DNA of 64,000 bases from an uncultured delta proteobacterium. GTDB lineage: Bacteria; Desulfobacterota; WTBG01; CAIYCZ01. Every line of letters starts with the position of its first letter. Position 1 is the first letter of the stretch. Shown here piece after piece: positions 3,016 to 23,920 of this stretch. The stretch covers positions 32,001 to 96,000 of the forward strand of contig CAWDOY010000025.1 in assembly GCA_963803975.1 (NCBI GenBank), read 5' to 3'. A program made the position numbers and the translations under genes. The notes below the pieces were generated by a model. That model did not search any database and was not told where the DNA came from. It worked only from the letters and a program-made list of their open reading frames with translations.

Positions 3016-3038
3016 ACACTAACCTTTACGCTGCTTTT

Positions 3039-3422: not shown

Positions 3423-3440
3423 AGAACTATTTTCTAAATA
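3423..3440. promoter_or_regulatory. Putative TetR operator variant upstream of porD-like operon
   Basis: Minus strand reads TATTTAGAAAATAGTTCT versus TATTTAGAACATGTTCT at 14693; one extra base in an A run. Confidence 0.5.
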
Positions 3441-3562
3441 GTATAGCTCTCCTAACAATGTCAAGATAAAACTTGAAAAGCAGACAACAGAAGATAGAAT
3501 CAATGCATTCATTTCAAACTCTATCCTTAACGCCTGTACCTCTAGCCCCTGGTCCAGCCATC

Positions 3563-4318
3563 CTAAAACATCACCGACGGCGGCAGCATGTGCAGCATAA
3601 AGCTTTCATGCGGTACGCCGAGCATCACCCCGCCCTTGAAGAAGCGGTTGTCCATGAAGGTGTAGCGCACCCACTCACGGCGCTGCTCCTGCATCCGGGC
3701 GATGTCATCCGCAGTAGGCTTTCAGGTCTTTTCTTTTGTCCACCAGCTGAAAGTAGGCTGCATATATTTCCCGTGCGGTATCCTCGAAGCATGCCGCGTT
3801 CTCCTCTTCCGGGCCGAATGCTATGCCCACGCCATAGCCGACGCCGGATCGTGCTTCCTTGAGCTCAAACATCTTCAGATAACCCTGCTGCAGGTCGCTG
3901 TAGATCCTGCCGTGCTTCTTCGTCACTGCTTCCATCTTCTGTTTGATAAAATTCGCGGTCTTCATCATAGGCAATGGTCGGGTAGACGTCAAAAAATCCC
4001 GGGCAGTGCTCCAGCCCCTGCTCCGACACATGCTCAAACACCCCCATGAAAATGGGCACATGGGGATTGCGGGGGAAGGTCTGGATGCCCACCCACTGGA
4101 TGGTGCTCTGGTAGTCTCTGCCGGGGATGGTCACGGTCGCGCGGATAGTTGAAACGCAGGCCTTTTCGAAAAAATCCCCCCTGCTGACATTTACTTCAAC
4201 CGCCCCGGCCCCGTTCAGGAAATTCCACTGCTGTTTCTCAAACCCGCCGGCATTATATCCGGCTAATGGTATCAAGATACTTCTGTTTTAGCTCTGCCAG
4301 AAACTGATCAGTAAGCAT
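3563..4318 (-). CDS. Coproporphyrinogen III oxidase (HemF)-like protein, divergent; three or more frameshifts
   Basis: RBS AGGAGG then ATG at 4318; GDFFEKACVS, FPRNPHVP, AYFQLVDKRK, RREWVRYTF and ESFMLHMLPPSVMF* follow the order of HemF motifs. Confidence 0.65.
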
Positions 4319-4359
4319 ACGGGCCTCCTTTTTTTAGTTTTTATATCACATCTCAAGTA

Positions 4360-4428
4360 TAAGTTCAAGAGAATAAGTTCCTTGCCCTTGTACTTTTCCT
4401 TGACATCAATAGTATGTTATAATATATC
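4360..4428 (+). promoter_or_regulatory. Operator-like box AGAATAAGTTCC followed by a sigma70-like promoter
   Basis: AGAATAAGTTCC at 4370-4381; TTGACA at 4400-4405; TATATC 17 bp downstream. Confidence 0.45.
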
Positions 4429-4616
4429 ACGACCAATAACCAGCACACAACAAAGTCCTCATTTTATTTCTGAATACGAACATGCACGGTTACAGGCATA
4501 TCAGCGATGGTTATGAACCGGTCTATTAGAGCCTTTTGAAATTAAAACATCAGGTTAACGGGCGGGGAAAATGGTTTCCACCCGTTTTATTTTAATTCCT
4601 TTCAAAGGAGGCTTCC

Positions 4617-6365
4617 ATGCAACGGGGTAATATCAAGCAACAACAGCTATCATACGAACATTTCCTGCTGCTCATCCTCGTCATACCTGTCCTGCTCCTG
4701 ACTGCATCCTGCGTAAAACAAGCAAACAATCGGCGTCATTTTTGCCCTGCACGGCGGGTTTGATACCTACAAGCCCCAGTATCTCTGGGATTCGTCAGTA
4801 CAGATGTTCTCCTATGACCCGAACCACCCGGTCTATAAGCATGGTCATCTGGAATCCGGATAACTGGACCATGGTCCTCCAGTCGGCCAATGCGCCTAAA
4901 GAGATACAAAAATATTCCTTTGAGTACCAGCGCCTGGGCGGCACTGACCCGTTTACCGGAATTACCGCCCAGCAGTTTGAAAATCTCAAGGCCGAGCTTG
5001 AAAGCCAGGGCAAATTCCGGGGATTTAACTTTGTGTTTGACTATGTGCAGTGGATGTCAGGTGATGATATCCCCCATTATGCCTATCCCCGGTTCGTCTA
5101 TAACGGCCCGGCGAACGCTGCCTCGAAATGCACCTACTGCGGTGAAAAGGAGTCTGACGGGCCATGGCCCGGCTGCGACCCGGAGCGCTACAATGTTGAC
5201 GGGCCGGTCGACCGGCTGATTAAAGAAAAAGTTTCCCGGATTATTATCGTGGACATGACCGTGGGCGGCGTGCGTTTCTCCAAAACCTTTGACTGTGTCC
5301 AGATGATAAAGCGCGCCCTGAAAGACAGCGGCAATGAATCAATACCGGTCACCTGGGTTAATGATTACAAAAGCCTCATGGAACGCTCTTACCCGACGGA
5401 ACCCGCCGGGTGGACCGCGACTCAGGGTGCGCCGACAAAAGATGCCAGCGTCCCCCTTGACGGGAGCCCGAATCCCGTGGCGGCAGACCCGGACCTTGCC
5501 GCACTGCATGTTGAAGGAATTGAGGCCGGCATGTCAGACAAGGTCCCGGATGCCGAGACCGGCGTCATTATCCTGAACCACGCAATAAATGACAACAAGG
5601 AATATTTTGACCCGAAGATAGATGATACGGTGACTGATAAACAAAAATATCAAATCCCAGCTTATCTCCCGCCACCCCGACATGAACCCGGCAAATATCG
5701 TCGGCGCCTACATGGGTATATACGAGAATGACCCGGACTGCAACGGCGCAAGGGGGCGCACGCGCAACATGCGCGGCGAGAACCTCGGCTATGCCTGGCT
5801 CTACGAGAGCGCGAAACAGCTGCCCGCTGATGAGTGGGGCTACCGCTACTGGGACGCACTTGAGTATCTTAAAAACCGCGGGGTGAAGCACATCGTGATC
5901 GGCTTTGCCCAGATTGTGACTGATTCGGTGTTAAACCTCGTTGAAATCCAGAACCAGATCGCAAAAGAGATCGGCACCAAAACCTGGCTGCTTGCCGCGA
6001 CCGGCGACATTGCCACCTATCCCGGCGTCGGGCACCCCTTTGCCGATTACTGGGGGAACTGGGTCAGGACCGACTGCGGCGGCACGCCGTGCTGCTTCAA
6101 GATGGGCGGCTGCGATGACGGCGTCTATCCGCCAATTGCCCAGAAATGCCCGCGCGACGACCTGGACCCGTCCCTTGCCTATGATGTAAGCGAGTACGGC
6201 CACCTGGGGTATGACCCGGCGCTCAGCCCCCCGGACCCCACTAAGCCCGTGCAGCAGCAGTATACCGGCACCTGGGCGATGTGGACGCCGCCCAATGCCG
6301 ACCCGCGCTTGAGCAAGCTGCTGGCGAAATATGTTCTTCAGGCAGCAAATGATGAGCTGAAGTGA
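4617..6365 (+). CDS. Ferrochelatase/class II chelatase-like probable lipoprotein (frameshifted)
   Basis: RBS AAGGAGG; hydrophobic leader ending LTASC; TIGVIFALHGG, GVIILNHA and GVKHIVIGFAQIVTDSVLNLVEI resemble ferrochelatase motifs. Confidence 0.5.
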
Positions 6366-6415
6366 CAGTACGATATAGTTCTTCTTTTCACTATAATGCA
6401 TAAGGAGAATACCGT

Positions 6416-7055
6416 ATGGAAAAGTTAAACAGAAGAGATTTTGCGAAAAAGGCCCTCGGCGGCGGCGGTCTGCTGACGCTCATCACCGCTTTCAATCTCC
6501 CGGGAGTCGCGTCTGCGTTCAGCGGCCCTGAAGTAGTCGTGCCGACGAATAAGTTCCTGAACCGCCCGGACCTGGGCGACGCGCTCAAGTCCATGTACAT
6601 GACCTATGACTCGACCACGCCCTACCCGCACAAATTCAACGAGACCATCAGCAAGCACCAGCTGCGGGCTCTGGAATTTTTTGTCTCAAAGAACATGGAC
6701 AAGGAATACGCCGAGCACTATGTGACAACCATGAAGCCGGTGCTGCTGAAGATTAAAGAGGCAATTGAAAAGGAAAAGAACCCGGAGAAGGCCCTCGTTG
6801 CCCTGTTTGATGACAACCCCTGCTCGTTCCAGCTCTTTGACCATATCAATGTCAAGCCCGGCGAGCGCAGCTTCCCCTGCCCCTACAAGGGAAAGCTCCA
6901 GGACTGCAAGTACTGGCTCGGAACATTCAACGCACATCGAGTGGAAGGATGTCTGCAACCGCTGGTGCATCCCCACCTGGAACGGTTTTGCCGAGACCCT
7001 CGGCATAAAAATAAAAATCCAGCCAAGCGATGAGTGCAAAGTTAAACTGGCGTAA
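6416..7055 (+). CDS. Tat-exported Cys-containing protein, paralog 1 (frameshift near 6930)
   Basis: NRRDFAK twin-arginine signal with ASA cleavage site; CSFQL, FPCPYK, VCNRWC, WNGFA. Confidence 0.7.
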
Positions 7056-7079
7056 CCCCCTGCAAGAGGAGGAACAGAT

Positions 7080-7750
7080 ATGGATATCAAAAACAGACCT
7101 GATTCTCTTTTCCTTACAGAATCATCAAACAACCAACCAGTCATGCATGTCCCGCCGGGACTTTGCGAAAAAGGCTGCCGGCATCAGTGCTGTATCAGCG
7201 TTTGCCCTGATGAGCCTGCCCCAGCTTGCGTCTGCCTGGATGAACAACGAGATCATGTCGCCGCGATGACATGGGTGACGGGCTGAAGTCAATTATTAAA
7301 ACCTACAGCACCACCGACCCCTATCCGCTGAAGTTTAACGAAGGCCTGGTGCGGCAGCATTTGCGCAGCCTTGACTTTGCCGTGCGCAAGGGAGTGGCGA
7401 AGGAGCATGCCGAGCACTTTGTGTACGTGCTGGGCCCGGTGCTCGAGCGTCACATAAAACCGGCAGTCGCGAAGCTGGGAAAAAATATTTTCCTCTGGGG
7501 CATCTTTGAGCGGACCGGCTGCTCCTACCAGCTCTACGAGCATATAAATATCAAGGAAGGCGAGCGGACGTTTTCGTGCCCGTACAAGCGGGCCCTGGAA
7601 TATCACAATAAAGAGGTCGGCACCTATAACTTGAAGTGGGAAGATGTGTGCGCCAACTGGTGCAGCCTCACCTGGAACGGCTTTGCTCAGATTGCGGGAG
7701 TGCAGATAAAAATTGAAACAGGGGAGACCTGCAAGGTATCGGTTGTCTGA
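7080..7750 (+). CDS. Tat-exported Cys-containing protein, paralog 2 (frameshifts)
   Basis: SRRDFAK signal with ASA; CSYQL, FSCPYK, VCANWC, WNGFA; collinear with paralog 1. Confidence 0.7.
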
Positions 7751-7774
7751 AATTATCAGCTTAAAAACAGAAAC

Positions 7775-7815
7775 GCCCGGCTGTGAGTTTCACCTCATGT
7801 GCCGGGCTTTTTTTA
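7775..7815 (+). terminator. Intrinsic terminator
   Basis: GCCCGGC ... GCCGGGC stem followed by a T run. Confidence 0.7.
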
Positions 7816-7885
7816 TGAAATAATTCGGGGGTGGATTATCGAGCGCTTACTGATAAACAACCTCAAACTGCTTCCGTATGTATGT

Positions 7886-7985
7886 GAAGCTCCCTGCCTA
7901 CAAGGCGGGGCTTCCCGGAGTTTAATTATTCTTTTCAAATACATGCCTCTTGACCCCGCTTACAAAGTGGGGCTTGCGAGGCATG
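7886..7985. repeat. Paired palindromic element (REP/PATE-like)
   Basis: Two related hairpins: GAAGCTCCCTGCC-TACAA-GGCGGGGCTTC and CATGCCTC..CCCCGCTT-ACA-AAGTGGGG..GAGGCATG. Confidence 0.5.
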
Positions 7986-8045
7986 AAAACGGTCATGCGC
8001 TCCTGTGAAAAGGAGACCCGAATAATTTAGCGGGCAATGTTTTCT

Positions 8046-9041
8046 TTACCCAGGCAGAAGCTCCTTTAGCTTATCTCTGAACGCAGGCAGTACCTTTTTC
8101 CAGTCGCCAACAACACCAAAATCGGCTTGTTTGAAGATAAATGCCTCAGGGTCTGTATTTATGGCGACGATACTCCTGGACTGGGCGCAGCCGCTCAAAT
8201 GCTGGATGGAACCGGAAAGAGCTATGGCAATATACAGATCGGGGCTGACAATTTTCCCGGTAATCCCTACCTGCCGGTTGGGGGCTATCCAGCGATTATC
8301 GCAGGCGGGCCGTGAAGCGCCAACCGCCCCTTTCAACAAAGCCGCCAGCTCCTGCAGCTGATTAAATCCTTCAGCACTGCCAATGCCTCTGCCTCCGCTG
8401 ACTATTACCGGAGCATCTTCAAGCCGCACCCCGCCCTCATCTTCCTTTACCCTTTTCAACAAGTCTGGCCCGTATGGCTGAGGGGTCCAGGCCGGCATCA
8501 ATGGTAATGACCTCTCCTGGTTTTGAGACAGGCTCTGGAGAAGACATTACCTTGTCTCTGACCGTGGCTATCTGCGGATAGGAGTCGCAGGTGAAGGTAG
8601 CCAGGCCATTCCCTCCGTAGACAGGTTTAGTTCGCAGCAACAGCTTTGTGTCAGGGTCAATAGCAAGGCCAACACAATCCAGAGTGGCTGTTGTGTCCAG
8701 CCGGAAGGCCAGCATGGGAGCAAGGTCACGACCGACAGATGTCTGTCCCAGGATGAGGATCCGGGGCATCACCTGTCTAACTACTTTTTCCATCACTGAC
8801 ACGTATGCATCTGTCTGGTACTCTTTAAGCAGCGGATCATCAACAACATATACTTTATCAGCACCAAGGCGATAGCTTCCTGAGCCAGACTTCCCACATC
8901 ACTTCCGACCAGCACCGTGCACAACTGCTGCCCCAGGTCATCAGCCAGCTTTCTGCCGCAGCCCAGTACCTCCTTGGAGATCGAAGGCAGTTTGCCGTCA
9001 ATGATCTCACAATACGTCATAATGCCGTTATATTCAGCCAT
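8046..9041 (-). CDS. etfA: Electron transfer flavoprotein alpha subunit (two frameshifts)
   Basis: IVSGGRG, VGASRPA, QVGITGKIVSPDLYIA, SGSIQH. Confidence 0.92.
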
Positions 9042-9189
9042 GAGATTTACCCTTTTTAGATTAGCTCATACAGTTTTTTTAGACTTTTTTTTCACTGATC
9101 AACAACCTGATTCAGGCACTCACGTCAATCCTCTCCCGCAGTGGCGAAGGAGGCGTGATTCAGAAACGTGTTATTTCAATCGGCCTGAT

Positions 9190-9982
9190 TTAGAGGAGCT
9201 GTGCTTCCCTTAGTTTCAGGGCCAGATTAGTTCCTGCCTCCTCCGGGGTTTCACCTGCCTATGAACTGGCACTCGGATTTCCGGCCCTGGGGAGCAGCCA
9301 GCCTGACCAGGTTCAATCTCTGCAGTTTGGATACATCAACCCCCAGCGCCTGCGCATTGCGAGTCGTGACCGGCATCTTCTGCGCTGCCTGCAGGTCCTT
9401 CAGCTTGGGGTATCGCAGCTCGCCGACCTCGCTGCTGGCGGTAACGACTGCCGGCATTGGGGCCTCAACTATTTCAGAGCCGTCTGATACCACCCGCTCC
9501 ACCCGTACCTTCCCATCGCTCACTTCTATTTTGCAGGCAGCAGTAATGCAGGGAATCTTCAAAATCTCGGCAAGACCGGAACCCACCTGGCCGGCATCCG
9601 TATCTGCCGCCTGTCTTCCGCAGAGAATAAGATCGTATTCACCGGTCTCCCGAATGGCTGTGGCCAGCAGGTGAGCTGTTGCATAACTGTCAAGCTGTTC
9701 AAACGCATTGTCTTCCAGCAGGATCAGCTCATCAGCACCCGAGGCCAAAGATTTCCTCAGTACCGGCTTGGCCAGGTTTCGCCCTGCGCTTATCACCGTT
9801 ACCCGTGCAGCGTGAGCATCCTTTATCTTAAGCGCAGCTTCGAGTGCATTCTCATCGTAGGGATTCATCACCGGCGGGGTGCCCTGGGGCATTATCACCC
9901 GCTTTGCTTCCACGTCAACTTTCGTGCCCGAGGAGGAAGCCTGCGGGTCAGGCACCTGCTTAACGCAGACAATTATTCTCAT
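9190..9982 (-). CDS. etfB: Electron transfer flavoprotein beta subunit (3' frameshift)
   Basis: IIVCVKQVPD, NPYDENALEAA, GRQAADTDAGQVG, LRYP; C-terminus GETPEEAG..LREAQLL*. Confidence 0.92.
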
Positions 9983-9983
9983 G

Positions 9984-11683
9984 TTACTTAACTCCCTTGG
10001 TTCGTCTTAAACAGCGGGAATATCTGCAGCTTCGGAACCTCTTCCTCTTGGACGGTTCAGCTCCCCAGAAGTAGTTGCCGCTTCCGACTCCGTTGGGATC
10101 CAGCAGTTCTTTGAGCTTGCGCTGCCAGCGGTATTCCGGTGATTTTGACAGCTTCTTTGCCCGCACCTCCACATCGGCATGGGTGGCTCTTGCCAGCCCC
10201 AACAGCATCCCTCCGGGAGGCCGGCCGAGCTGTGCTTTCAACCGGTCCCCTTCGTCAGAAACTTCCGCTGCCGCCTTTGCTGAGTCAGGATCATAGGGGT
10301 CATAGAAGACAAAGTCCTCCCATCCGGTGACACCGCCGCCGCCCTGGCCGCCTATTGGTCCCATTGCCTGATCACCGGCATCCGCGATTCTGCCGGCATA
10401 TTTCTTCAACAGCGCCTTGCCTGCTTCGATTTCCCCGGATGCCCAGACATCCGGTGTTGCTACCGAGTTATACGTATCAACAAAGCCTCCGGTGGCGGTA
10501 AAGTTGAGATTCTTGAAGCAGAGCCTGATCATAAACAAAAGTACGTACTCTGCATGGCCGGCTCATCCACAAATGCTATGTTCCATCCGCCGGTCTCACG
10601 CAGTATCTGGTCCAAAACTTTCTGCTGATACGCAAGGTCTCTCGGCGTCATGCCAACCAGGATAAACTGGAAGCATGCGCCGCATCTCTTCAGTGAGCTT
10701 TTGTATTTCAGGCTTTTCCAGCAGTTCCTCCAGGTCGCAGAGCTGCCTGGCGGGGTCGGTTACGATTTTCAGGAAAGCCGCCTGCAGCTCATCCCCCCAC
10801 ATGACAAACTGCCGGTGAGCGATATATCCGATTTCCGAGTCATAGATTCTGTAGATCGCATCAGCAAAGTCCTGCCAGCTGGGGAAGGCCGGGAACGCAG
10901 CTCTGAAAAGATCCTCCGGAAGCTGCGCCTGGTAGGACGGCACAGTACCTTCAATGGGCAGTATCGCCGGGCCGGGCCAATGAACGAGCCGTATTGCAAT
11001 CTTGGTCACAACGCCCCAGCCCCCGGAGCCTCCCAGGGCGCCTCTGATTACCCCCTGTGTGCTCGGTCCTGGCCCTTCAGCACAGAACCAGCCCAGGCCG
11101 GACCCCAGAGAGCCTGTCCGCAGTATCTCCCCCGTAGGCATCACCCACTCGATTGACAGGATGCTGTCCTGAGGAGAAGAAAAGTACATACAATCCGGTC
11201 CCCCGCCCTGAAAACAGCAGGCATTGGCAAGCACCGAGGTACCAGCGCCGGCACCACTTATATGATTGTTCAAGCCCTTCTTCATGGCTTCGGCTTGAAG
11301 CTGCGCGGCCACCACATAGGGCTCAACCACAGCAAACATATTTTGTTCGTCTATTTCCAGTATTCGATTCATCCTCCTCAAATCCAGGAGTATTTGCCCC
11401 TCGGACGGGCGGTGCAGCCCATGGCCCCCAGCCCGTACTGAAGACATGAAACTTTAATTTGTACTGGTTACAGGCTTTGACTATAGCCTGAACCTCCTCC
11501 GCGCTTCCCGGCATAAGCACAGCCTCAGGCCTGTCAAAGAACTTGCTTCCGCCGGTTACGTCTGGTTACCAGCTCAGCCATCCATTGATAAGCATATGAA
11601 TCCAGCGTCGCCGGCTCCTCCGTGATATTGTCCGGCCCCACAATGTCTTCCAATGATTCATATACTTCTCTCAATAGTGCCAT
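9984..11683 (-). CDS. FAD-binding oxidoreductase (GlcD/VAO family), frameshifted; true stop uncertain
   Basis: PEAVLMPGSAEEVQAIVKAC, LDLRRMNRILEID, VVEPYV, GVVTKI, LKELLDPNG. Confidence 0.82.
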
Positions 11684-11699
11684 ATTTATTTACCTCCTG

Positions 11700-12980
11700 T
11701 TAGATTGCTTTCCGAACAAGGTCTACAATGTCATACACTTTCATGTTTTCGCCTTGATCAGTAACGACGTCCGTGAAATTCCTCTCACAATGGGGGCACG
11801 CGCTCACGATCGCCTCAGCTCCGGTGGCCTTTGCCTCTTCAATCCGCTCTCCGGCGGTCCATGAGGAGAAATTCCGGATACCGTTCCCGCACCCCGGCAC
11901 CGGCACCGCAGCACCAGGCATATTCCCTGTTTCTTTCCATCTCAACCAGCTGTATGCCCGGAATGCTTCTCAGCACATTCCTCGGCGGTGTCATAAACAC
12001 CCAGGGCTCCGTTATACCTGGGTTTTCGCGGCTCGTATACCAGGACCTGACCGCGAATTTTCTTCTGTTCGCCCTTCCACGGCACATGCGGTTCCCCTCG
12101 TCTTCCCAGATGGCAGGGGTCATGATAGGTGACGGTCAGGGGAACGGTTTTGGTGAATTTTATCTTTCCTTCCCTGATGAGCCGGTCAAGATATTCCGTG
12201 ATGTGAAGGACCTCGAACTTGAAATTCCAGCTCAGCAGGATAGAGGCGCTTGAACGCATGGTAACAATCGGAGCAGCCGGTAACCACCGTCTTCACGCCT
12301 GCAGTCGTCCAGGCATCCTTATTATTCTCGGCATACTTGAGAAATTCCCCCCGGTACCCCATATCACAAAGCCGGCCGCCGCAGCAGTTCTCGTCACGCC
12401 CCATGATGCCGAAATCAACGCCGGCATTCTTGAGCAGAGTCCACCACGTCTCGGGGCATTTTCCACAGGTCCTCATCAAACTGAACCGGCAGCCGACGTG
12501 GAAGACAACTTCAGCCTTCTCCCGGGTCAGGTCTTTCACATCCAGCCCCTCAGCCCATTTGGCGCGATCAGCCTTGGGCTTCATCATCATGTTGTCCTCT
12601 TTGCGGAGATTATCGATGAGGGGAATATCCTGGAACGGGAAGCAGCCGTTGTCTATCAATTTAAATCGCAGTTGTCGCATCACCTCTACGGGTTCAAGAT
12701 CATACCGGTAAACCTTGCAGGCAACGTCACAGCACCCGTCCATCATGCATTTAAAAACGATATCCACCAGACCTTCATCAAAGTAACTGCTTCTTTCCTC
12801 GAGAAGAGACAGCGAGGCGCATAATCTCCCGCTTGCCGAATAACTTTGGAACTTATTATACTCTATGCTGGGGCAGCCTTTTGCAAAGCGCCAGCTCTTC
12901 ACATGAGCAAATGGAATCCATTTGCAATATGAGCATCTGCTGCATCTTGTCGCAGTAGCCCTTAAGTCTTCCAGTGCCAC
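11700..12980 (-). CDS. Fe-S oxidoreductase with CCG domains (GlcF/HdrD-like), frameshifted
   Basis: [36 protein letters not shown]. Confidence 0.88.
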
Positions 12981-13010
12981 TTTATTCCTCCTGCTTTGTA
13001 TGTTTTCTGC

Positions 13011-14528
13011 CTAGAAGCAAAGCTTGCCGGGTTCAATACATTATTGGGATCGAACAACCCTTTCAGCTTCCTTGACAGGCTCGTATGCTCGGCATTTCTG
13101 CTATATGCCATGTCTGCCCAAATCCCGTAGGGCCGGGAAAAGAACGCTCCCTGCTTTGACAGTTCTTCACTGGCCCTGGTAAAGAGCCCTTGAACTGTGG
13201 CCGTCTCGCTCTCGCTGCCTGGATCGAACGGTAAACTGAATTCCACATGGCAGCTTGTCCCCAGGTGCGTCGGCTGAAGGTAAATTCCTACATCTGATGG
13301 CGGGTACTTAAACGCTTCTGCCAATGAGTTCATCGTCATTACGAATTCCGGCACTCTGTTAAGCGTGGTTAGAAAGAAAATATCCTGGCATCCGCCCTTG
13401 TTGCGAAGTTTCCAATACGGTTCCTTTGAGGGATTGAGCACTGCTTCCGCTACCTGCTCACCTGTTGCCCCGGGGACAGCCGACTCCAGGCGAACGCCAA
13501 ATTGCTGAGCGATATCGCGTATGTCATTTTCCAGAAATTCAACTCTTTCCTGCGCCAGCACATCGCGCCCGGTCAGCCCCAGGACAAGAATCCACGGAGG
13601 AAGCTCTTTTCTCAAACCCATGATCTGCTCAGTGCCTTCTCCCAGAATGGCTGCCAAAGCGGGACCGCTAAACAGCATTAATTCGTCATGAAATCGTAAT
13701 TCTTAAGAGCTTATAGGCAAAGCCGATGATGCTATCGAGCCCTTCAGCCGGCAGCAGAAAAAACTTTTGAACTTTCGGCAACACTTCACATCTCAGCGAC
13801 GCCCAGGTGACAATACCCATAGTTCCCTGCGCTGCTGACAGCAGCTTATGGAAATTAAATTGCCCCGGGCCATATTGATAGAGCGCCGTATCTTGTGTTT
13901 TCCGTCGTTTTTCCAGTAGTTCTTCTATCGGAATGAGTTTCGCCACTCCCGCTGGTGGATGTGCTGACGCCGGCACCCGCCAGCTCACCGGTCCTGAATA
14001 TATCCCCGTTCCCCATGACCGTTTCAAGGCATCGCAGGGGCTCGCTCAGCGACCAGGCATACCGGGGGTTCATGATAGGCTCCCTTTCCAGGACGCTGCC
14101 CAGCACAGATTTAGAGGTTCGCGGCAGAAGTGGCATGGAAAGTCTCAATCCTTCCTTTGCCAGCTCCGGCTGGAGTTTGCTGAAGGTTACCCCGGGCTCA
14201 ACTACAGCCACCCGATTTCTCCGGTCCGTCATGATGATCCGGTTCATCCCGCTAAGGTCCACAATAACCGCCCCTTCTGAACCGGGAACACTGTCACCAC
14301 GGAAGTGCGGCAGGCCTGAGCTTACGGGCACGAGTGGCGTTCTCGTTTGGTTGGCCCACTTAACTATACCCTGCACTTCATCCGCATTCGCAGGCTTTAC
14401 CACCATCAGGGGCTTTCTTGGCGGAGTGAAACTGTGGTCCCTGGAGTAACCATCCAAGTGTAATCTGGATCATTAATTACATTCTCCGCACCAACTATCT
14501 TTATTAGCTCATCTTTTTTTTCGGCCAT
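13011..14528 (-). CDS. FAD-binding oxidoreductase (GlcD family), frameshifted
   Basis: VVKPANADEVQGIV, VDLSGMNRI, VEPGVT, AQGTMGIVT, LKGLFDPNNVLNP(G)KLCF*. Confidence 0.85.
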
Positions 14529-14692
14529 CTATACCTCACTTTTTCCTCTGAAATTTTCTTATCTTTAGCAAAGAGTTAAAGAGATGTCAAAATTCATCTG
14601 GTCGTTCTTTTAAAACAAGGTTTCCCCGGATTCAGAATCCTCTGCGGATCAAGTGCCTGTTTAATCTCTTTCATAAAGTAAAAGACCTGCAC

Positions 14693-14714
14693 TATTTAGA
14701 ACATGTTCTAAATA
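14693..14714. promoter_or_regulatory. Putative TetR operator, perfect 22-bp palindrome
   Basis: TATTTAGAACATGTTCTAAATA in the divergent intergenic region. Confidence 0.8.
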
Positions 14715-14751
14715 TAAATAGCACACTCTTTTTTTCCTTGTCAAGGATAAA

Positions 14752-14763
14752 AGAACATGTTCT
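14752..14763. promoter_or_regulatory. Second putative TetR operator
   Basis: AGAACATGTTCT, identical core to the first site. Confidence 0.75.
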
Positions 14764-14813
14764 AATTAAAACTTATTTGCAGTGCTGCCCAATCAATTTG
14801 CAACAAAGGTACT

Positions 14814-15482
14814 ATGAAGATGAAGATCCGGAAAGCCAACAGCGAAGCAGTGAGAAACAACATAATAAAGATTTCCCGAAGACTCTTTCTTGAACAGGGA
14901 TATGAAAATACAACGGTCCGACAGGTACTGAAAAAGGCACGTCTGTCGACAGGAAGTCTTTATCACTTTTTTAAAAATAAGGAAGAAATCCTTCTTTTCA
15001 GCTTGAAAGATGCTCTCCTTGAAATTAGCAGTCTCACAGATAGTATCGCAGTAAAATACAATGAACCGATTCTACGATATGCCTTAGGTATTGCGTTAGG
15101 AATAAGTGAGATTTTTAACTATAAACACTTGTTCAATTTTTACAATGCTATCTATAAAAATGAATCTGCCGAAAATTTTATGATTAGCCTCAAAGTTACC
15201 AGAATGAAAAACTTATTAAACGATCTGAATCTTCATTTTACTGATAACGAGATCCATTCTCGTATTCTGGCAATTCATGGAGCAACAAGGGCTTTAATGC
15301 TGGCTACAATCAATAAACAGTTATCGGCAAATCTTAATGATATTTACTCCTTGATTATCAAGATTGCACTGTCTGAATTTAATATTCCCGAGAAGAAAAT
15401 TAATAAAATTATCAAGCTCACAACCAAAATAATTCAAACTAAAACCTTCTCAAGGAATCTCGCGGAGAAATTAAAACCCTGA
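14814..15482 (+). CDS. TetR/AcrR family transcriptional regulator (AT-rich gene)
   Basis: LFLEQGYENTTVRQV...STGSLYHFFKNKEEI helix-turn-helix. Confidence 0.92.
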   Translation: MKMKIRKANSEAVRNNIIKISRRLFLEQGYENTTVRQVLKKARLSTGSLYHFFKNKEEILLFSLKDALLEISSLTDSIAVKYNEPILRYALGIALGISEIFNYKHLFNFYNAIYKNESAENFMISLKVTRMKNLLNDLNLHFTDNEIHSRILAIHGATRALMLATINKQLSANLNDIYSLIIKIALSEFNIPEKKINKIIKLTTKIIQTKTFSRNLAEKLKP

Positions 15483-15832
15483 TCATTTCATCCCATGAAT
15501 GATTGTTTCATCCACGGTAAGCGCCTCATTAACCCCATCTTCACAGGATAGCCTCGCCAGGCCATAGTGAGCCTCAACAATAACAAGAGATATCTTCGCC
15601 TGGGACTACCGGCACCAGAAGACACGCAGGACATGGTGCGAATCGCTACAGAAATAAAGAAGGTGCCTGATGCCATGGGCGCCGGCCCGCTGGTGCTCGG
15701 CCGTGACGGATCGCTCCCGAAAATCATGGGGACGAATTGCGATGAGGCGCGCAAACTCAAATCACTTTTTGGTCCGGTGAACATCACGTCCCCCGGCATC
15801 GCCTTTTGCTATAGAAGATAGATACTGTTTAA

Positions 15833-15870
15833 TAAAAAAACCCGCCGTTCTTATGGCGGGTTCTTTTATT
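15833..15870. terminator. Bidirectional intrinsic terminator
   Basis: A run, CCCGCC..GGCGGG stem and T-rich tail between convergent genes. Confidence 0.7.
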
Positions 15871-15900
15871 AAACACTCAGTCTGATTTACATCCTCAGCT

Positions 15901-18067
15901 TCACTCTATATAACCTAATGAGCGAAGTTTTTCGGTAATAGCTTGATCCGGCTTAGGCAATTCTTTATTACCCTCTATCGGGTTAAAAGAACGGTTCCAG
16001 CGTTCCAACTGCGCATTCAGCTCCTGTGCTTTCCGGGGCAGTTTATCAGCCAGATTGGCGGACTCAAGAGGATCATCGGTGATGTTATACAGCTCGCATC
16101 TCCCATCAGAAGCCCAGAGATACTTGAAATCGCCCGAGTAAATTGCTTTAAGATCTCGTGCCAGGTGTTTTAAGTCCTGGCGTCTTTTCCATGTCGGGTC
16201 CTGATAATTCTCGGCAATTATAGTTCTGGGTTTTTCAGGGAATTGAAAAACAATGCCCTGGATGTTTTCAGGAACAGGGAGCGAAACAGTGTTAAGAATT
16301 TCCGGGAAAATATCAACCAGGGATACCGGATCATCTACCACGCCTGTTTTCTTGCGCCATGAGGGATATTTAATAATCAAGGGTACTCTTAAGTTGTCCT
16401 CATAAAGCGCTATGCCGTGGGTCATTAAGTGGTGCTCTCCAAATGATTCTCCATGATCAGAGGTTACGATAATCATGCTCTGTGTAAATAATTTCAGCTC
16501 CTGTAACTTTTTCATGAGCTTTCCCACGGCATCATCCACAAATGATAATTCTCCATCATACAGCGCCAGGAGATGATTCTTTTCTTTGAGCGACAACACA
16601 TGCTTGCGTTTTATAACATCTGTTAACAGCTCCAGCTCTTTTTCTTTATAAGAAGCTGCGGAGGTGCTTGTCATATAGCATATATCACCGTATCATCTCT
16701 GCCTGGATAGCGCGTATCAAACGGTGCAGGGGGCATATAGGATTGATGGGGGTCAAAATAATGAACAAAGAGAAATACCGGCAGCGTAACATTAAAGAGT
16801 AAAAACTTCTGTTGTGCTAATTGCGTTTCACGATTATTGAGCCATGCAAAGACCAGCTCATTTATTTCGTGTGCTCTTCGTTCTCCCCCCCAGGGGTCTA
16901 AGTTATCATCATAAAATTTAAATCCCTGCCCCAGGCCAAAGACTGCCTTGCAAAATGTACCCGCTATTATTCCCGCTGTGTCATATCCGTGTTCTGATAA
17001 AATTTCAGCTATCGTAACATTATTATCACTGAGCTTTGTGCAGAAATAGGGAGGCTTTGCATGCTCTGACCGGTGCGCGTTATGCATCGAAGGGTAACAG
17101 CCGGTCATGAGTGATGCATGTGAGGGAAGTGTCCAGGAAGACGGTGCATACGCTCTTTTAAACATACTATTCTCACGCGCGAACCGGTCTATGTTCGGGG
17201 TTGTGTTTCGTTCGTAACCATAGCAGGAGACATGGTCTGCGCGCACGGTATCAATGCTTATGATAATGACGGAAGGCCGCTGCGTTAGTATAGTAATAAA
17301 TTCTTTGCTAAAGTTATCAGTATTCGTCTTGAGCACTATCTCTGAGATTCCCCACGCGACAACACCAGATAGAAGTAATAAATATGCAGCAGCACCCGGT
17401 AATGGCAGGAAGCTTAATATTTTTTTTAAAACGTTAAGAAGTCCGAATAACAATAAAAAACAGAGCACAGCAACCACCGATAATCGCCCCATTCACCATG
17501 AGTCGTTTGGGAGTTAAATCAAGGAATTTTCCGGGAAGAAAAGATTCATTAATAAAGGTGCCTGCCAGAAGAAATGCACACAGGCTGATATAGAGGGCAA
17601 ACAAGACCCGGCGCTGTGTTTCCTTGTTTGCGATACCTGATGAAAGCCGTAAAAGAAGCAGATATATCCCGCCACAAAATGCGCAAAATAATAGACCCAG
17701 ACTTATGGCTGCCGGCAGCTGAGCTTTAAAGAATAATTTATTGTTAATGATGGCGAGACCGGCGCAGAGCAGGATAGAAATAATACATCCAGTGTAACAA
17801 ACTATATCTGCGTCGAAAATATTTTGTGTATTTCGTCTGCTGCGTCTTAAGAAACTGCTGCAAACAGGCTGCAATCATCCCTCCGACAGCCCCGGCTATG
17901 GTATACGCGCTGATTGTCATCAGTACGGTCGAGAGATGCAGAATCGGACCGCGTGTTAGATTCAGCAGAGCTTCCATGATCGCAAATACAAGCCAGCCTA
18001 TCCCCCAGATGCAAAAGCCGTGCACGATATTTCTGGTAAATGAAGGCTGTAGATTTAATGTATTCAT
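15901..18067 (-). CDS. Membrane-anchored sulfatase-like hydrolase/transferase (frameshifted)
   Basis: Several N-terminal TM segments; SIDTVRADH, WTLPSHASLMTG, HYFDPH, YDGE, TSDHGE, LRSLGYI. Confidence 0.8.
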
Positions 18068-18510
18068 AGTATCATTCGTTTTTATTTGCAGCGTTTGCAG
18101 CAAGTGCAAAGCTTTTAAACCAATTAAATTACATTAACGATAAAAGTCAATTATATAGTTTGGGGGCGCAAAAAGAATGCTGAGGTTGAGGCAGAGAATA
18201 AGTGACCTGCCCGTGTCCCGTCTGCGGAGCTACGGCGCGGTGGCAGGCAAAAAGGCAATGATGCACCCCTCGACTGCGCTCGGGGCAAATAGAAGAATAG
18301 CGATGAGTGCTGAGTAACGAGCGATGAGTAAAAGCTGGTGAATGGGTAAAAAAACATAAGACAGAAGACAGATTTGAAATAGGCAATAGAAAAATCTCGG
18401 CGAACTCTGTCCACCGTCCGTAGCAGGCTACTGCGGAGGGCGGGTGATCTCTGCGGTTAAACATTCACTAATCACGAACCCCGAGTCACGAGCCCCTGCT
18501 TTATAGTGTA

Positions 18511-19857
18511 TCAGCTGAGTGACAGCGTGGGAAATCCTGCGCGCATGCAGCTGCCGAATACCACTTCAAGCGGCGTGGTGCGCATCGTGCCAAGCTTCTG
18601 AAAAATATCCGGCCGATCCTTCTGCACCATGGGCATGATCTCGGCGAGCGCCCCGCCCACGAGCTTGGGCGTCTCATACGGGTCAAGCATGCCCGGCAGG
18701 GTCTTCTTGATCGACCCGAGCAGGTAGTCAATGTCATCAGGTGATAAAACATACGGCATCACGGCGTTGCCGATCATGTCCTTGTAATCATAGAGCTTGA
18801 TTACTTCATCTCGCCACCAGTCAAGATATACCGCGACGCCTTCCCGCGATATCTTTCCTTCAACAAGGGCAAACGTTACCGCGTTGGCAGCTTTCCAGCC
18901 GCTTACCACCGCGCCGGTCATCTCCGCTTCCTGGCACCACACCGCGTCTGAAACCAGAAGCACCTGGTCCTGGTACGGGTCAATGATATGGGAAAGCATG
19001 TTCCCCACGGCAGGCAGCGTCCGTTTTACTTCAGCCTTGGCAAACCAAGGCGCAAAGTACCCTTCGCTGGTGACGCGCTTGAAAATCGCCTCGTGGTCGC
19101 GGCCGGGATGGAGCGAGGTGACCATGGCAAAATGCTGATCGCTGCCGGCGCGCGGGGTCATCCAGATGCGCATGGCCGGACTTTCATTGAGGAATATCTG
19201 GAACAGCCCGTATTTTTCCGGCGGCTGGACTCCTGACATTTCAAATCCCAGCGTGGTGGCAGTGCCGAAATATTTACGGTCCCGGTTCTTGCCCAGCGTC
19301 CGCGCGATTTTAGAAGACCGGCCGTCCGCGGCGATTACAAAAGTGCCCTTGAAGCTCCGGCCTTCGGCTGTCTTTACCGTGACCCGATTTCCTTCCGTGT
19401 GCGTCCCAATGACATTATAGCCGGGAAAAACATCCACATGATAGCCGCGCGCCTCATCCAGCAGTCCCTGCAGCAGAGCACCCTTGTTATAGACCGCGCT
19501 GATTCGTCCCGCTGAGCCTTTTTTTATGTTTTCATCATAATTCCCCAGCGTTACCTTATTGCCCCGATGGGTATAAATGGCCCAGGTGTAGAAGTCCTGG
19601 TGAGGTCCCTGGTAGTTTATCGAAAAGCCGTAACGCGGGAAACAGATGCGTTTTTCCCGCTCATTTAAAAGCACGCGCTCACCGAGGTATTTTCCGGTCA
19701 GCGTCACCACCATCATGCTGCAGGCGCGGTTGATGTCCGCGATGTTGTCCTTGCGTTCAATAAGTGCCACGCTCAGCCCGTTCTCACCTGCTGTTTTTGC
19801 CGCCATGAGACCTGCGGGACCGGCACCAACGACGATAACATCATATTCTTTTGCCAT
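18511..19857 (-). CDS. Geranylgeranyl reductase/FixC-like FAD-dependent oxidoreductase
   Basis: YDVIVVGAGPAG, IERK, VIAADG; intact 448-aa ORF. Confidence 0.8.
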   Translation of the reverse strand: MAKEYDVIVVGAGPAGLMAAKTAGENGLSVALIERKDNIADINRACSMMVVTLTGKYLGERVLLNEREKRICFPRYGFSINYQGPHQDFYTWAIYTHRGNKVTLGNYDENIKKGSAGRISAVYNKGALLQGLLDEARGYHVDVFPGYNVIGTHTEGNRVTVKTAEGRSFKGTFVIAADGRSSKIARTLGKNRDRKYFGTATTLGFEMSGVQPPEKYGLFQIFLNESPAMRIWMTPRAGSDQHFAMVTSLHPGRDHEAIFKRVTSEGYFAPWFAKAEVKRTLPAVGNMLSHIIDPYQDQVLLVSDAVWCQEAEMTGAVVSGWKAANAVTFALVEGKISREGVAVYLDWWRDEVIKLYDYKDMIGNAVMPYVLSPDDIDYLLGSIKKTLPGMLDPYETPKLVGGALAEIMPMVQKDRPDIFQKLGTMRTTPLEVVFGSCMRAGFPTLSLS

Positions 19858-20139
19858 CTTTTCTCCTTTTCAAGAACCTCGTATAGTCAAAACAAACCAC
19901 AGAGAACTCTATAAATAAATTATTATAAACTATCAACGGTCTGCCGTCAGCTGTAAGCTTTTTCCGTGCGTCGAAGATCTCCGGTGCCTGGTTATATGCT
20001 GTCACTATGTAACACGTTGCTGTTTTCTGAGTCAATATCTTTTTGCCAAAACATCCTCCCAACCGCGCTGTGCGGGCTTCTCCAACTTTCTTCAACAAAG
20101 GAGCCGATGGTTATAGGTTTAATAGTTAATATACTTAAT

Positions 20140-20204
20140 TAAGTTCCATCAGAATAAGTTTCTTAGAATAATTGTATGACGATGTTTTTTTGCCTTGACA
20201 TCAA
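20140..20204 (+). promoter_or_regulatory. Operator-like box and -35 element upstream of the bilin-reductase-like genes
   Basis: TAAGTTCcatcAGAATAAGTTTCT then CCTTGACATCAA; same elements as 4360-4409. Confidence 0.45.
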
Positions 20205-20240
20205 ATTTCAAATAATATAAAAAATGTGCTAACTACCAAA

Positions 20241-20585
20241 ATGAAGGTAACCTATCATGACCCCTGCTACCTCGGCAGGTACAGCCGCCTCGATGACGCG
20301 CCCCGCGAAATTCTCGCTGCCGTCCCCGGGCTCAAGCTGGTGGAAATGGAGCTCAACCGCATGCATGCCTGATGCTGCGGAGCCGGCGGCGTCAAGCTCG
20401 GCAAGCATGATTATGCGGTAGCCGCCGGCAAAAAGAGAGTTGAAGAAGCCATAGCAAGCACTGCAGATGTTCTGGTAACAGCCTGTCCGGTCTGCGTTGA
20501 AAATTTCAATAAGGCAAAGGAAGCCTGTAAATTCAAGGTTACCGTACTGGATATAGCAGAGCTGCTCTGCAAGGAACTTGCATAA
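20241..20585 (+). pseudogene. Single CCG-domain Fe-S protein (fragment) with in-frame TGA
   Basis: Hand translation [13 protein letters not shown]...MHA*CCGAGG...VTACPVC...KELA*; TGA at 20370-20372. Confidence 0.7.
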
Positions 20586-20661
20586 CAGAACTGCAGCGGC
20601 CGCGGGGACGCAGTAATGATCTCCCCCGGATTCGCTGTGGTACAAACGGAAAGGAGAGTGT

Positions 20662-21429
20662 ATGGCACGTGTTGACTACAAGGACATGATCAACTACGCC
20701 GATGACCTTCTGAGTAAGTACAAAATTTTCGAAGGCCTTGATCTGGTACCTCTTGAAACCTATGAGGGTATGGATACCAGGTCGGCCTGGGAATTCAAGA
20801 CCCCCATGGCAACCGGCTACTACAAGCCGTACCTCATCAAGGGAAGCACTGCCATTGAAAAGATCACCATCGGTGAGCTCCACTACATGCGCCGGGCAAA
20901 ATATTGCGCCCTCAACATGACGGCCAGTGATGATTATGACCTGCCCATCTATGCCTGCGAATTTGACGAGTCAGCGCCGCGCCTCGGCATCACCGTTGAC
21001 CTTATGCCGATCGCGGACATAGCTGTCCATCCCGAATACCGGGAAAAATATCTTGACCCCCTTGCCGCTGACTGGAGAAAATACCGCACCATCCCCGGCT
21101 TCACCGAAGAGGGCCGCTGCCTGGTGCAGCGCAGATATGCTCCCTGGAACTGGGCGCGGGAAAGCCTGTCCCCCTACTCTCTTGACGGCCGCGTTGTAGA
21201 GCCCGAAGACCGCTACAAGGTCATGGATGCGATTGCGGCCTACGCGCGGATATGGTTTGACCTGCTGAAAAAGGCCGAGCCCATGAAAGACCCGCAGTAC
21301 AAGCAGGAAGTGCTCACGCGGAAAAAGTTCCTGCAGAAAATTTACCGCGACCGCGACCCCGGCGGAGAGGTTATCAAGAAGATTTTCGGCGACGATAAAC
21401 ACCACCTTTTTGTAAGCTTAATCTTTTAG
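20662..21429 (+). CDS. Ferredoxin-dependent bilin reductase (PcyA/PebA/PebB/RCCR)-like protein 1
   Basis: YDLPIYACE, VDLMP, YREKYLDPL, SLSPY, AYARIWFDLL, YRDRDPG..IKKIFG..LIF terminal pattern; 255 aa. Confidence 0.7.
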   Translation: MARVDYKDMINYADDLLSKYKIFEGLDLVPLETYEGMDTRSAWEFKTPMATGYYKPYLIKGSTAIEKITIGELHYMRRAKYCALNMTASDDYDLPIYACEFDESAPRLGITVDLMPIADIAVHPEYREKYLDPLAADWRKYRTIPGFTEEGRCLVQRRYAPWNWARESLSPYSLDGRVVEPEDRYKVMDAIAAYARIWFDLLKKAEPMKDPQYKQEVLTRKKFLQKIYRDRDPGGEVIKKIFGDDKHHLFVSLIF

Positions 21430-21442
21430 GAGGATGCGTACC

Positions 21443-22106
21443 ATGGCAGACGGCAGCAAATGGGCACCGTATATTGATAAAATGCAGGAGCAGCTCTCCC
21501 GGCTTCGCTCCCGTGGAAATCCTGCAGGATCTGACAGCCGGAAAAACATTGAAAGCATACGCTGCAGACAAATTAGCTAAAATCGCGATTGGCGATTGCA
21601 CTACCGGTGACGGCAGGCATATCGGCATGTGCACGATAGTTCCCCTTGAGCAGTACTGGCTGCCCCTGTTTTTTTCCTTCTGGGAAGAGCGGGAAAAAGA
21701 GATTACGTTCCTGGTTGATATAATACCAACGGTGGACTCGCTCGTTGACGAGCCCTATCGCATCAGGTATTTTGATTCCATCCAGCCGATGTGGGTAAAA
21801 TTCGCCAGCCTTCCCGGCATCACACCATTTGAAGATGACGCGGTCAGGGCGCTCTGCTCCATCGTGTATACCGCCGCGGTAGTGCCCGTAGACAGGGAAG
21901 GCATGCGTCTGGCAGCGCTTGCCCCGCATACGGAATACCTGAAGAGCTACATCGACTTTGTTAAGGATGCACCGCTGGCTGATGGTGAAGCAAAGCTCAA
22001 GGAAATAAAACGCAAGATCGAAGCTGTCAAAACAGCTCTTCGCAGCTATGTGCAGCGGCAATATGCCGGGGCCATACATGAGGACATGATTAAAGTCTTT
22101 TTTTAA
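21443..22106 (+). CDS. Bilin-reductase-like protein 2, paralog (5' frameshift)
   Basis: RBS AGGAGG; YWLPLF, VDIIP, YRIRYFDSI, EYLKSYIDFVKDA align with protein 1. Confidence 0.6.
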
Positions 22107-22191
22107 TGCATTTTAACCGCAGAGCACACAGAGGGCGCAGAGAATTTAATATTCTATTGAACCGCGTCATTACACAGAAAGGGGTTCAACA

Positions 22192-22602
22192 ATGACCATA
22201 CTCGATATTTTACACAGAGGCGTTGCATTCGCTAACGCAGACGACATAGCTAAAGAAATGCTTGCTGACTTTAAAGATCACCGGGTGGGAATGAAGCTTG
22301 ACAAGGATGAGCTCACCATGGTGGTGAAAGACGGGGTGGTTTCTATTGAGAGCGGCATGCAGCTGGACAACTGTCACGCTGCCATGAACATGAAGACCAT
22401 TGATGTGTGCGGCGCCATTGACAACAGCTTTGACCTGATGGAAATACGGGAAAAGGGGAAGCTGCTGAAAGGTGACCCGATGGATATGAACATCGCCGTC
22501 CACTTCATGGCAACATTCCCTTACTTTGACGCCATGGTGCGCCTGTACCAGGAAGATGCTGAGTTTAAAAAGATGGTGGATGATTATAAAGCTACTCTTT
22601 GA
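22192..22602 (+). CDS. SCP2 (sterol carrier)-like lipid-binding protein
   Basis: MVVKDGVVSIESG ... FDLMEIREKGKLLKGD pattern; 136 aa. Confidence 0.5.
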   Translation: MTILDILHRGVAFANADDIAKEMLADFKDHRVGMKLDKDELTMVVKDGVVSIESGMQLDNCHAAMNMKTIDVCGAIDNSFDLMEIREKGKLLKGDPMDMNIAVHFMATFPYFDAMVRLYQEDAEFKKMVDDYKATL

Positions 22603-22712
22603 TTGTGCACCGCTGAGTACGCCCCTCGGCCATGAGCAACTCGGCCTTGAGCTCGGGGCCGAATGGCAGAGATCGCAGAGAATAAACTCTTCAAACGATA
22701 GGGATTAAACGT

Positions 22713-22925
22713 ATGGTCAAGCATATTGTTGATATAGAAAAGTGCGTCGGTTGCGGCAAGTGCGTTGAAAACTGCTCTCTGGAACTCTGGGTGATGGTGG
22801 ACCGGGAAGGCAGCAAAAAAAAACTTGCACAAGTTACCGAGGAGGCTGCCCTGATTTGTCATACCTGCGGCATGTGCTCTGAAGGATGCCCGGAAAAAGC
22901 AATTGTTATAATTAACGAGGCATAA
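22713..22925 (+). CDS. 2x[4Fe-4S] ferredoxin
   Basis: CVGCGKCVENC and CHTCGMCSEGCP. Confidence 0.9.
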   Translation: MVKHIVDIEKCVGCGKCVENCSLELWVMVDREGSKKKLAQVTEEAALICHTCGMCSEGCPEKAIVIINEA

Positions 22926-23919: not shown

Positions 23920-23920
23920 G

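Follow-up and report, generated by a model that had tools for sequence, protein, structure and literature searches.

Putative tetrapyrrole-handling genes form a lineage-wide set in uncultured, haem-oxygenase-free anaerobes

The locus and the question

What might an anaerobe do with a cluster of genes whose products carry the folds of tetrapyrrole enzymes? The question is raised by a 64-kb stretch of DNA (the window) found in the 4.25-Mb, 57-contig genome of an uncultured delta proteobacterium (G000, estimated to be 98% complete), where it spans positions 32001-96000 of contig C25. A preliminary description of the window proposed that positions 3423-22925 hold a regulon for the anaerobic conversion of tetrapyrroles or bilins. 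We find that the gene cluster is real, conserved and larger than first read; the system is undescribed in the literature searched, and its function is putative. Support was found for reading the folds as those of tetrapyrrole enzymes and for an anaerobic context free of haem oxygenase, and comparisons of fold, co-occurrence and synteny mostly favoured the description. Metal removal and the substrate are hypotheses.

Genomes of the class and phylum that were compared are designated by G numbers, loci by L numbers and proteins by P numbers. The sets were 41 genomes of the class (including G000) and a separate 301-genome sample of the phylum; some related loci come from genomes already in the G set and are not additional genomes.

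Many window genes are frameshifted. Most of the frameshifts look like assembly errors, because compensating indels are seen in other sequencing runs (12/88 among those listed) and relatives have intact orthologs of the broken genes; on the same grounds, gene decay is an unlikely cause. The HemF-like gene of genome G001 also reads broken, which counts towards decay. Sequencing runs carrying the operon of ferredoxin-dependent bilin reductase (FDBR)-like genes come from 15 studies of sediment and freshwater metagenomes. Metatranscriptome coverage reached 27 and 29 of 30 bins in two runs of one study; as the contigs have no silent-stretch control, this coverage does not demonstrate transcription.

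Bilin-reductase-like proteins beside a ferredoxin

The right part of the cluster contains the following features:
20238-20585, plus strand: C-terminal end of a CCG Fe-S gene, a remnant that contains an in-frame stop; an intact 399-aa homolog lies 5' of FDBR-1 in locus L009.
20662-21429, plus strand: FDBR-like protein 1 (FDBR-1), intact.
21443-22106, plus strand: FDBR-like protein 2 (FDBR-2), one frameshift near 21514.
22192-22602, plus strand: conserved 136-aa protein.
22713-22925, plus strand: dicluster-type ferredoxin (2x[4Fe-4S]-type).

Both genes first described as bilin-reductase-like were upheld. FDBR-1 passes Pfam PF05996 (43.3 bits, cut-off 31), and a 37-sequence profile of its family matches HY2 (E 6e-16), PEBB, PcyA and PebA, and RCCR weakly. 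When FDBR-1 is aligned with PebS, E100 falls at the D105 position of PcyA and PebS, and D232 at the D206 position of PebS, which we take to be a functional site. FDBR-2 is assigned to the superfamily only through the FDBR-1 family profile (E 8e-15). Neither acidic residue is kept in FDBR-2 or its orthologs, and FDBR-2 is a degenerate paralog. Both window proteins belong to the fold family of the known FDBRs (HY2/PebB, PebA/PebS, PcyA, pre-PcyA) and RCCR; FDBR-1 has acids at both PebS positions, and a ferredoxin, confirmed by profile matches, is adjacent. A match to the NCBIfam equivalogs PcyA, PebA and PebB was not found for either protein at E 1e-5; the best paralog in the genome scores 89.9 bits (cut-off 263), and many genome paralogs lack the canonical acids.

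FDBR-1, FDBR-2 and the 136-aa gene adjoin in 8/9 loci, the ninth ending within FDBR-1; a geranylgeranyl-reductase (GGR)-like gene is found in six of these loci and FAD-oxidases in four. The 136-aa gene, formerly read as an SCP2-like carrier, is conserved; its SCP2 identity stays a weak lead (Pfam E 0.093; a PDB profile search without match; 0.91 for the lead in the Atlas, with the family on 12% of members). Two FDBR-like proteins from other loci, P0307 and P0316, have a fused N-terminal 4Fe-4S ferredoxin domain and group with the paralog on contig C31 of G000; the fusion supports a dedicated dicluster-type electron donor for proteins of this kind.

Two trees place the anaerobe proteins differently relative to the known FDBRs, whose ancestors they might be: known FDBRs are nested among the anaerobe FDBR-like proteins in a 77-row quick tree (SH-aLRT 81), while a 37-row tree splits the two sets at a branch with support 49. 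Both trees omitted RCCR, pre-PcyA, PcyX and cyanobacterial PcyA, and represented window FDBR-2 by its orthologs. A phage search that used one genome paralog as query gave no match.

A HemF-like protein

3563-4318, minus strand: HemF/CPOX-fold protein, ~250 aa when intact, with at least three frameshifts here.

An intact ortholog in G030 bears out the HemF-like assignment with 37.9 bits against PF01218 (cut-off 31.8); the window fragment scores 16.6 and the G003 ortholog 29.2. The C-terminal R-x-E/Y-F...G..ES...PP pattern of HemF also aligns. Asn-Arg replaces the Asp-Arg motif of HemF, presumably catalytic in that family, in 5/5 orthologs aligned, and the best genome paralog reaches 99.7 bits on the HemF equivalog, whose cut-off is 297. 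The protein is like oxygen-dependent HemF in its family profile and C-terminal pattern, and unlike it in length, in the Asn at the Asp position, in identity (~20%), in having six paralogs and in its anaerobic host. It is a true but non-canonical relative of HemF. A PDB search with an alignment that included E. coli HemF was set aside as circular.

A ferrochelatase-fold lipoprotein and a pair of exported proteins

4617-6365, plus strand: ferrochelatase-fold lipoprotein, ~580 aa when intact, frameshifted here.
6416-7055, plus strand: Tat-exported paralog 1, with a conserved Cys and one frameshift; fold inferred from paralog 2.
7080-7750, plus strand: Tat-exported paralog 2, 222 aa, intact; V4R/H-NOX/Bet3-type fold, a weak match (Z ~7).

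The claim of a ferrochelatase-like exported lipoprotein was confirmed at the level of fold on the AF2 model of an ortholog, P0289 (pLDDT 92), which has a class II chelatase fold and matches CpfC with a VIA-align Z of 25.9 (rmsd 2.6, 303 residues; Foldseek E 2.6e-9). Ferrochelatases lie at Z 22-26, above SirB, CbiK and FetB at 14-17; among the latter, the exported FetB of P. gingivalis and periplasmic CbiK of D. vulgaris match at Z 15-16. The lipoprotein shares with HemH and CpfC an invariant His (His316), which we take from the motif to be the equivalent of B. subtilis His183; His183 and Glu264 are presumed to be catalytic there. It differs from them in its length with large insertions, its lipoprotein signal and a score below the Pfam ferrochelatase cut-off. 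It also has Leu432 where E. coli HemH has Glu275, so that the catalytic His and Glu pair is not found complete, in an alignment that is weak (probability 8.9, 42 columns).

An RRxF motif is found in both Tat paralogs, in line with the export proposed for them. Their fold search gave a best Z of 7.2-7.3, the tool's mark being 8; the top natural matches (Bet3/TRAPP, BcsD, VirS, H-NOX, PoxR, DmpR), though weak, are all of one fold type. A complex prediction for the chelatase and the Tat pair scored 0.00 and is not evidence either way. The chelatase-Tat-Tat order is intact in seven relatives. Counted by hand, at least 11 of the 28 top chelatase loci have one of the listed FDBR matches no more than 5 kb away.

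A second, distant family of chelatase-like lipoproteins is encoded beside a 445-aa exported protein without Pfam match (L010:9300-12602; in G000, C3:306567-309858, C41 and C53).

A toolkit shared by the lineage

The window is one piece of a lineage-wide toolkit. Searches of G000 with PF05996 gave 23 matches, 17 over cut-off; with phmmer iteration, the genome holds ~22 FDBR-like loci and 6 HemF-like loci. Seven of the FDBR-like loci are near-copies of others, perhaps strain haplotypes, which leaves 15 distinct types. Eight PF00762 (ferrochelatase) matches and three nitrogenase-like pairs were also found, the B subunits of the latter being closest to BchB/BchZ, all below cut-off. Near-identical duplicated blocks with FDBR-like genes (C24/C36, C4/C31, C39/C40, C40/C41) are either true duplications or strain haplotypes.

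FDBR-like genes are present in 31/41 class genomes, with 6-18 matches in each of the 30 relatives. In the phylum sample they occur in 9/301 genomes, all of this order (families f1/f2), and in none of the other 292. HemF-like genes (25 of the 41 class genomes), chelatase-like genes (26) and the Tat pair (27) all fall within the FDBR-positive set; the FAD-oxidase family (32/41) and PCP_red domains (35/41) are slightly wider. G016, a genome of the same order (95% complete), has no FDBR-like, chelatase, Tat or HemF-like matches and keeps the FAD-oxidase family and PCP_red.

Gene order extends the system beyond the limits first drawn, to a corrinoid demethylase (23275-27969), to oxidoreductase and NuoEF-like genes left of 3341, and to many paralogous clusters elsewhere. 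In G009 (L082/L083), the FDBR and chelatase-Tat modules and importer genes lie inside 30 kb; in G030 and G036, a HemF-like ortholog, the corrinoid demethylase, importer genes, an FDBR paralog and GGR form one gene run. Scans of neighbour genes (147 proteins in one set, 66 in another) found recurring MMPL, YCF48, DUF1302 and DUF1329 proteins, PNPOx-type split barrels, alpha/beta-hydrolases, Flavodoxin_5 and more ferrochelatase-like proteins; many scanned neighbours have no family or are unrelated housekeeping genes.

Other arrangements were observed in the scans. Flavodoxin_5 proteins, which we take to be of the HemG family, recur next to a single FDBR paralog type, in most cases together with a GGR-like gene (L076:1885-3012, L074:2562-3551, L080:2770-3810, L019:7507-8346). 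A second run (L035:5981-10522, on contig C8 of G000) combines ferredoxins and two FDBR-like genes with a paralog of the 136-aa protein and with a B12 radical SAM protein that resembles BchE (204.9 bits, cut-off 481). On contig C1 (L018:10080-13561), an FDBR-like gene stands between an NMT1-type ABC transporter (upstream) and an MSMEG_0568-type radical SAM/GNAT/AIR-synthase-like set (directly downstream). FrhB-family genes were considered as BciB/HCAR, an identity that was not established, the NCBIfam matches being FrhB-type only. The reading of DUF1302/DUF1329 as the alkane-uptake pair AupAB was not used, the terms being absent from PMC5989066.

In clusters of Ca. Schekmanbacteria (P0148, P0294, P0342, P0352), members of the Tat protein family and FDBR-like relatives are both present, which suggests that the system may reach a second phylum.

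Redox and demethylase genes of the cluster

1-3341, minus strand: 2-oxoacid:ferredoxin oxidoreductase-like subunits and a NuoE/NuoF-like flavoprotein (Pfam Complex1_51K/NADH_4Fe-4S).
8046-14528, minus strand: two FAD-linked (GlcD/VAO-type) oxidoreductase subunits, a CCG Fe-S subunit and electron-transfer flavoprotein (ETF) beta and alpha; frameshifted; family expanded in the lineage.
18511-19857, minus strand: GGR-like flavoprotein, intact.
23275-27969, plus strand: four-component corrinoid demethylase, several frameshifts.

The ETF/FAD-oxidase/CCG module was recovered by profile matches, as first described. Orthologs of the 1-3341 genes have PorB-, NuoF- and NuoG-like NCBIfam matches; to the left of the window the block goes on to encode GGR-like paralogs and a NuoG-like Fe-S protein, and similar blocks adjoin GGR-like, chelatase or HemF-like genes in relatives. 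It likely supplies reduced ferredoxin. The GGR-like flavoprotein falls under the TIGR02032 cut-off (72.8 bits, cut-off 158.8), and a PDB search with the single sequence gave no match; its family profile finds 3oz2, an archaeal DGGGPL reductase, as best PDB match (E 4e-25), which makes the proposed assignment a fair one. The demethylase, which lies outside the coordinates of the preliminary description, consists of a corrinoid protein, a URO-D-fold methyltransferase I, an MtgA/MtrH-like methyltransferase II and a RamA/AcsV-like activator.

What the genes may do

Genome-wide searches provide the metabolic context. HO-family haem oxygenase (PF01126) was found in 0/41 class genomes (the control matched in 3/14) and a photosynthetic reaction centre in 0/13 genomes searched. 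Rieske proteins are short ones only, none of oxygenase size. In G000, no DsrA was found over cut-off, and acetyl-CoA synthase, HemB and HemC are present.

In our view, the lineage probably takes up environmental tetrapyrroles and transforms them reductively without oxygen, candidate substrates being macrocycles derived from chlorophyll, bacteriochlorophyll or haem, and bilins, with sedimenting biomass as the proposed source. This proposal is based on folds, conserved gene order, co-distribution and the lack of haem oxygenase and reaction centre matches. It is favoured because several unrelated tetrapyrrole-specific folds have expanded together, beside importers and periplasmic binders, in an anaerobe in which no oxygenase was found. 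The steps that we infer would be as follows:

(i). The periplasmic ferrochelatase-fold lipoprotein and the two Tat-exported V4R/H-NOX-type proteins would capture the pigment and might strip its metal.

(ii). DUF1302/DUF1329/YCF48/MMPL importers, found beside FDBR-like genes elsewhere, would bring it into the cell.

(iii). Alpha/beta-hydrolases and the corrinoid demethylase would take off ester groups (phytyl, methyl), the methyl group entering the Wood-Ljungdahl pathway.

(iv). FDBR-, HemF-, GGR- and DPOR-like enzymes would reduce vinyl, methine or ring double bonds, each at different positions, with electrons from ferredoxin, itself reduced by the 2-oxoacid oxidoreductase and the NuoEFG-like proteins encoded nearby.

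(v). FAD-oxidase/CCG/ETF modules would carry out oxidative steps.

Chlorophyll derivatives are indicated by the DPOR-like and GGR-like proteins, the hydrolases and the demethylase; the ferrochelatase-, HemF- and HemG-like proteins indicate haem or porphyrins. The lineage may use both.

Several observations weigh against the proposal. A shared fold is no proof of substrate, and specificity for tetrapyrroles is not a feature of the GGR-like, FAD-oxidase, SCP2-like or V4R-like proteins. The chelatase-fold lipoprotein may only bind its ligand, since the catalytic Glu is missing in the weak alignment. HutW was not found over cut-off (211.9 vs 400 bits), nor was a ring-opening enzyme identified. Co-absence of the families reflects only two or three independent events, as 9/10 FDBR-negative genomes fall in two families. 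Genus g10 (G010, G011, G015) has FDBR-like genes without chelatase-like or HemF-like ones; it and G016 appear, from their gene content, to be natural partial losses. The work in 10.1101/072470 proposes export by DUF1302/DUF1329 and notes these genes in aromatic- and steroid-catabolism islands. Finally, with HemB and HemC present, the enzymes could act on self-made tetrapyrroles.

The last two points also suit a biosynthetic or remodelling role, in which the organism would make an unusual tetrapyrrole of its own from uroporphyrinogen or sirohydrochlorin, tailor it and export it for periplasmic metal insertion. The DUF1302/DUF1329/MMPL set would then be the exporter (10.1101/072470). Known examples of DPOR-like, BchE-like and chelatase folds serve biosynthesis, and on CfbC the NifH-like subunits reach scores close to those on NifH. 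We nevertheless regard this role as unlikely. At least 15 divergent FDBR-like types and many FAD-oxidase/ETF modules resemble substrate breadth, not a one-product pathway; a corrinoid demethylase feeding tetrahydrofolate suits catabolism; the chelatase lacks, in the weak alignment, the Glu required for metal insertion; and the neighbourhoods of the FDBR-like genes scanned showed no client phytochrome or phycobiliprotein, a search that was not made genome-wide.

The folds might also have been redeployed on hydrophobic compounds other than tetrapyrroles (N-heteroaromatics, quinones, isoprenoids, steroids), so that the tetrapyrrole look would reflect ancestry. The catabolism of aromatics and steroids typically involves importers of this kind and VAO/GlcD-type oxidoreductases, the canonical acids are missing from FDBR-2 and many paralogs, and the HemF-like and chelatase-like proteins each lack a canonical catalytic residue. 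Redeployment seems distinctly unlikely to us: it would have to affect four independent tetrapyrrole folds jointly, with lasting linkage, and all characterised enzymes of the FDBR/RCCR/CPO fold bind tetrapyrroles (PMC13193486).

Returning to uptake and reductive transformation, a stronger form is that the class specialises in the anaerobic consumption of tetrapyrroles derived from chlorophyll and haem, the radiation of FDBR, HemF, ferrochelatase and DPOR folds being an undescribed oxygen-independent catabolic pathway that includes ring opening. We put this form forward tentatively, as somewhat short of an even chance. If it were true, the FDBR/RCCR/CPO fold would work without an oxygen-dependent step and may predate bilin biosynthesis.

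Comparison with described systems

Known FDBR systems have a few copies, whereas 6-22 FDBR matches per genome are found here. Pre-PcyA clusters typically have the haem oxygenase that was not found in this class; pre-1 and pre-3 clusters also hold two V4R proteins and an Fe-S protein (PMC10151467). In the same paper, Rockwell et al. argue that all known enzymes of this fold are oxygen-dependent and arose after oxygenic photosynthesis, and PMC13446030 (2026) asks if earlier 'archae-FDBR' enzymes exist. A haem-oxygenase-free anaerobe with ~15 distinct FDBR-like and six HemF-like proteins tests the questions of both papers, whatever the substrate. The outgroup of PMC10151467 may include members of this FDBR-like family. 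The supplement of PMC13193486 lists D6734_12105 (= P0342) as 'Unknown'; in the available parts of these sources, the Ca. Schekmanbacteria relatives have been published only as 'Unknown' or as members of an uncharacterised outgroup.

The plant PAO/phyllobilin pathway and its proposed prokaryotic version (10.64898/2026.03.19.712979) are alike in dechelation, ester hydrolysis and RCCR-fold reduction. These routes require an oxygenase (PAO); no Rieske protein of oxygenase size was found here. The words 'anaerob', 'Desulfo' and 'sediment' do not occur in the main text of that paper, which puts the chlorophyll turned over yearly at about a billion tonnes and calls its prokaryotic breakdown essentially unknown.

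Oxygen-independent tetrapyrrole catabolism is also represented by anaerobic haem breakdown through ChuW/ChuY (PMC10151467), whose enzyme families are different. A description of the present system or of an anaerobic chlorophyll-breakdown route was not found in the open-licence PMC and bioRxiv literature. The gut bilirubin reductase BilR, likewise oxygen-independent, belongs to another enzyme family. The finding names a lineage and cloneable enzymes for testing anaerobic tetrapyrrole breakdown, and there may be here a route for uptake and transformation of buried pigments without oxygen in sediment.

Two regulatory motifs

14814-15482, plus strand: TetR-family regulator (Pfam match).
14693-14714 and 14752-14763, strand undefined: TetR operator candidates, a perfect 22-bp palindrome and a second AGAACATGTTCT, respectively.
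4370-4405, plus strand: motif B half-site AGAATAAGTT, with a TTGACA -35 box at 4400-4405; kept in a same-genus genome.
20151-20200, plus strand: motif B direct repeat AGAATAAGTT-N4-AGAATAATTGT, upstream of TTGACA at 20195-20200, in the FDBR-1/GGR promoter.

The preliminary description placed the whole 20 kb in a single regulon, with one TetR motif in four promoters. The TetR gene was confirmed and the shared motif was not borne out: the palindrome is found in the TetR promoter only, and sites 4370 and 20151 share another motif, motif B. Agreement of site 4370 with the palindrome at 9/12 bases, and an 11-mer shared by site 3423 and the TetR promoter, would suit a single regulon. The former is a 3-mismatch match to AGAACATGTTCT, one of 37 in the window (chance mean 21.9); sites 3423 and 20151 have more than three mismatches. 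Exact matches to AGAACATGTTCT number two in the whole genome, both in the TetR promoter, and no support came from dyad enrichment in 128 target versus 1519 background intergenic regions (AGAA-N4/5-TTCT forms, p 0.10-0.39). G001, of the same genus, has no ETF/FAD-oxidase/TetR block at this locus (L070) and no TetR ortholog with the window TetR as query (best E 1e-8; genome 91% complete), yet it keeps motif B. On these grounds a single TetR regulon is very unlikely, and we reject it.

TetR probably controls the divergent FAD-oxidase/ETF operon only; G003 keeps the AGAACATGTTCT palindrome between the TetR ortholog and the FAD-oxidase gene. The first half of motif B ends 31-34 bases before TTGAC and recurs in orthologous promoters of relatives. 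Its location upstream of the -35 box suggests an activator site.

Other genes of the window

15901-18109, minus strand: sulfatase-domain protein (Pfam match) with a hydrophobic N-terminal region, frameshifted; a gene of this kind also sits between Tat paralog 2 and GGR in G001.
28329-31248, minus strand: two genes resembling topoisomerase VI subunits A and B, candidates from the look of the sequence.
32351-33896, plus strand: frameshifted open reading frames with several CxxCH motifs, a probable multihaem cytochrome c.
54951-56384, minus strand: ribosomal protein S1-like open reading frame with a duplicated acidic low-complexity tail at its end.

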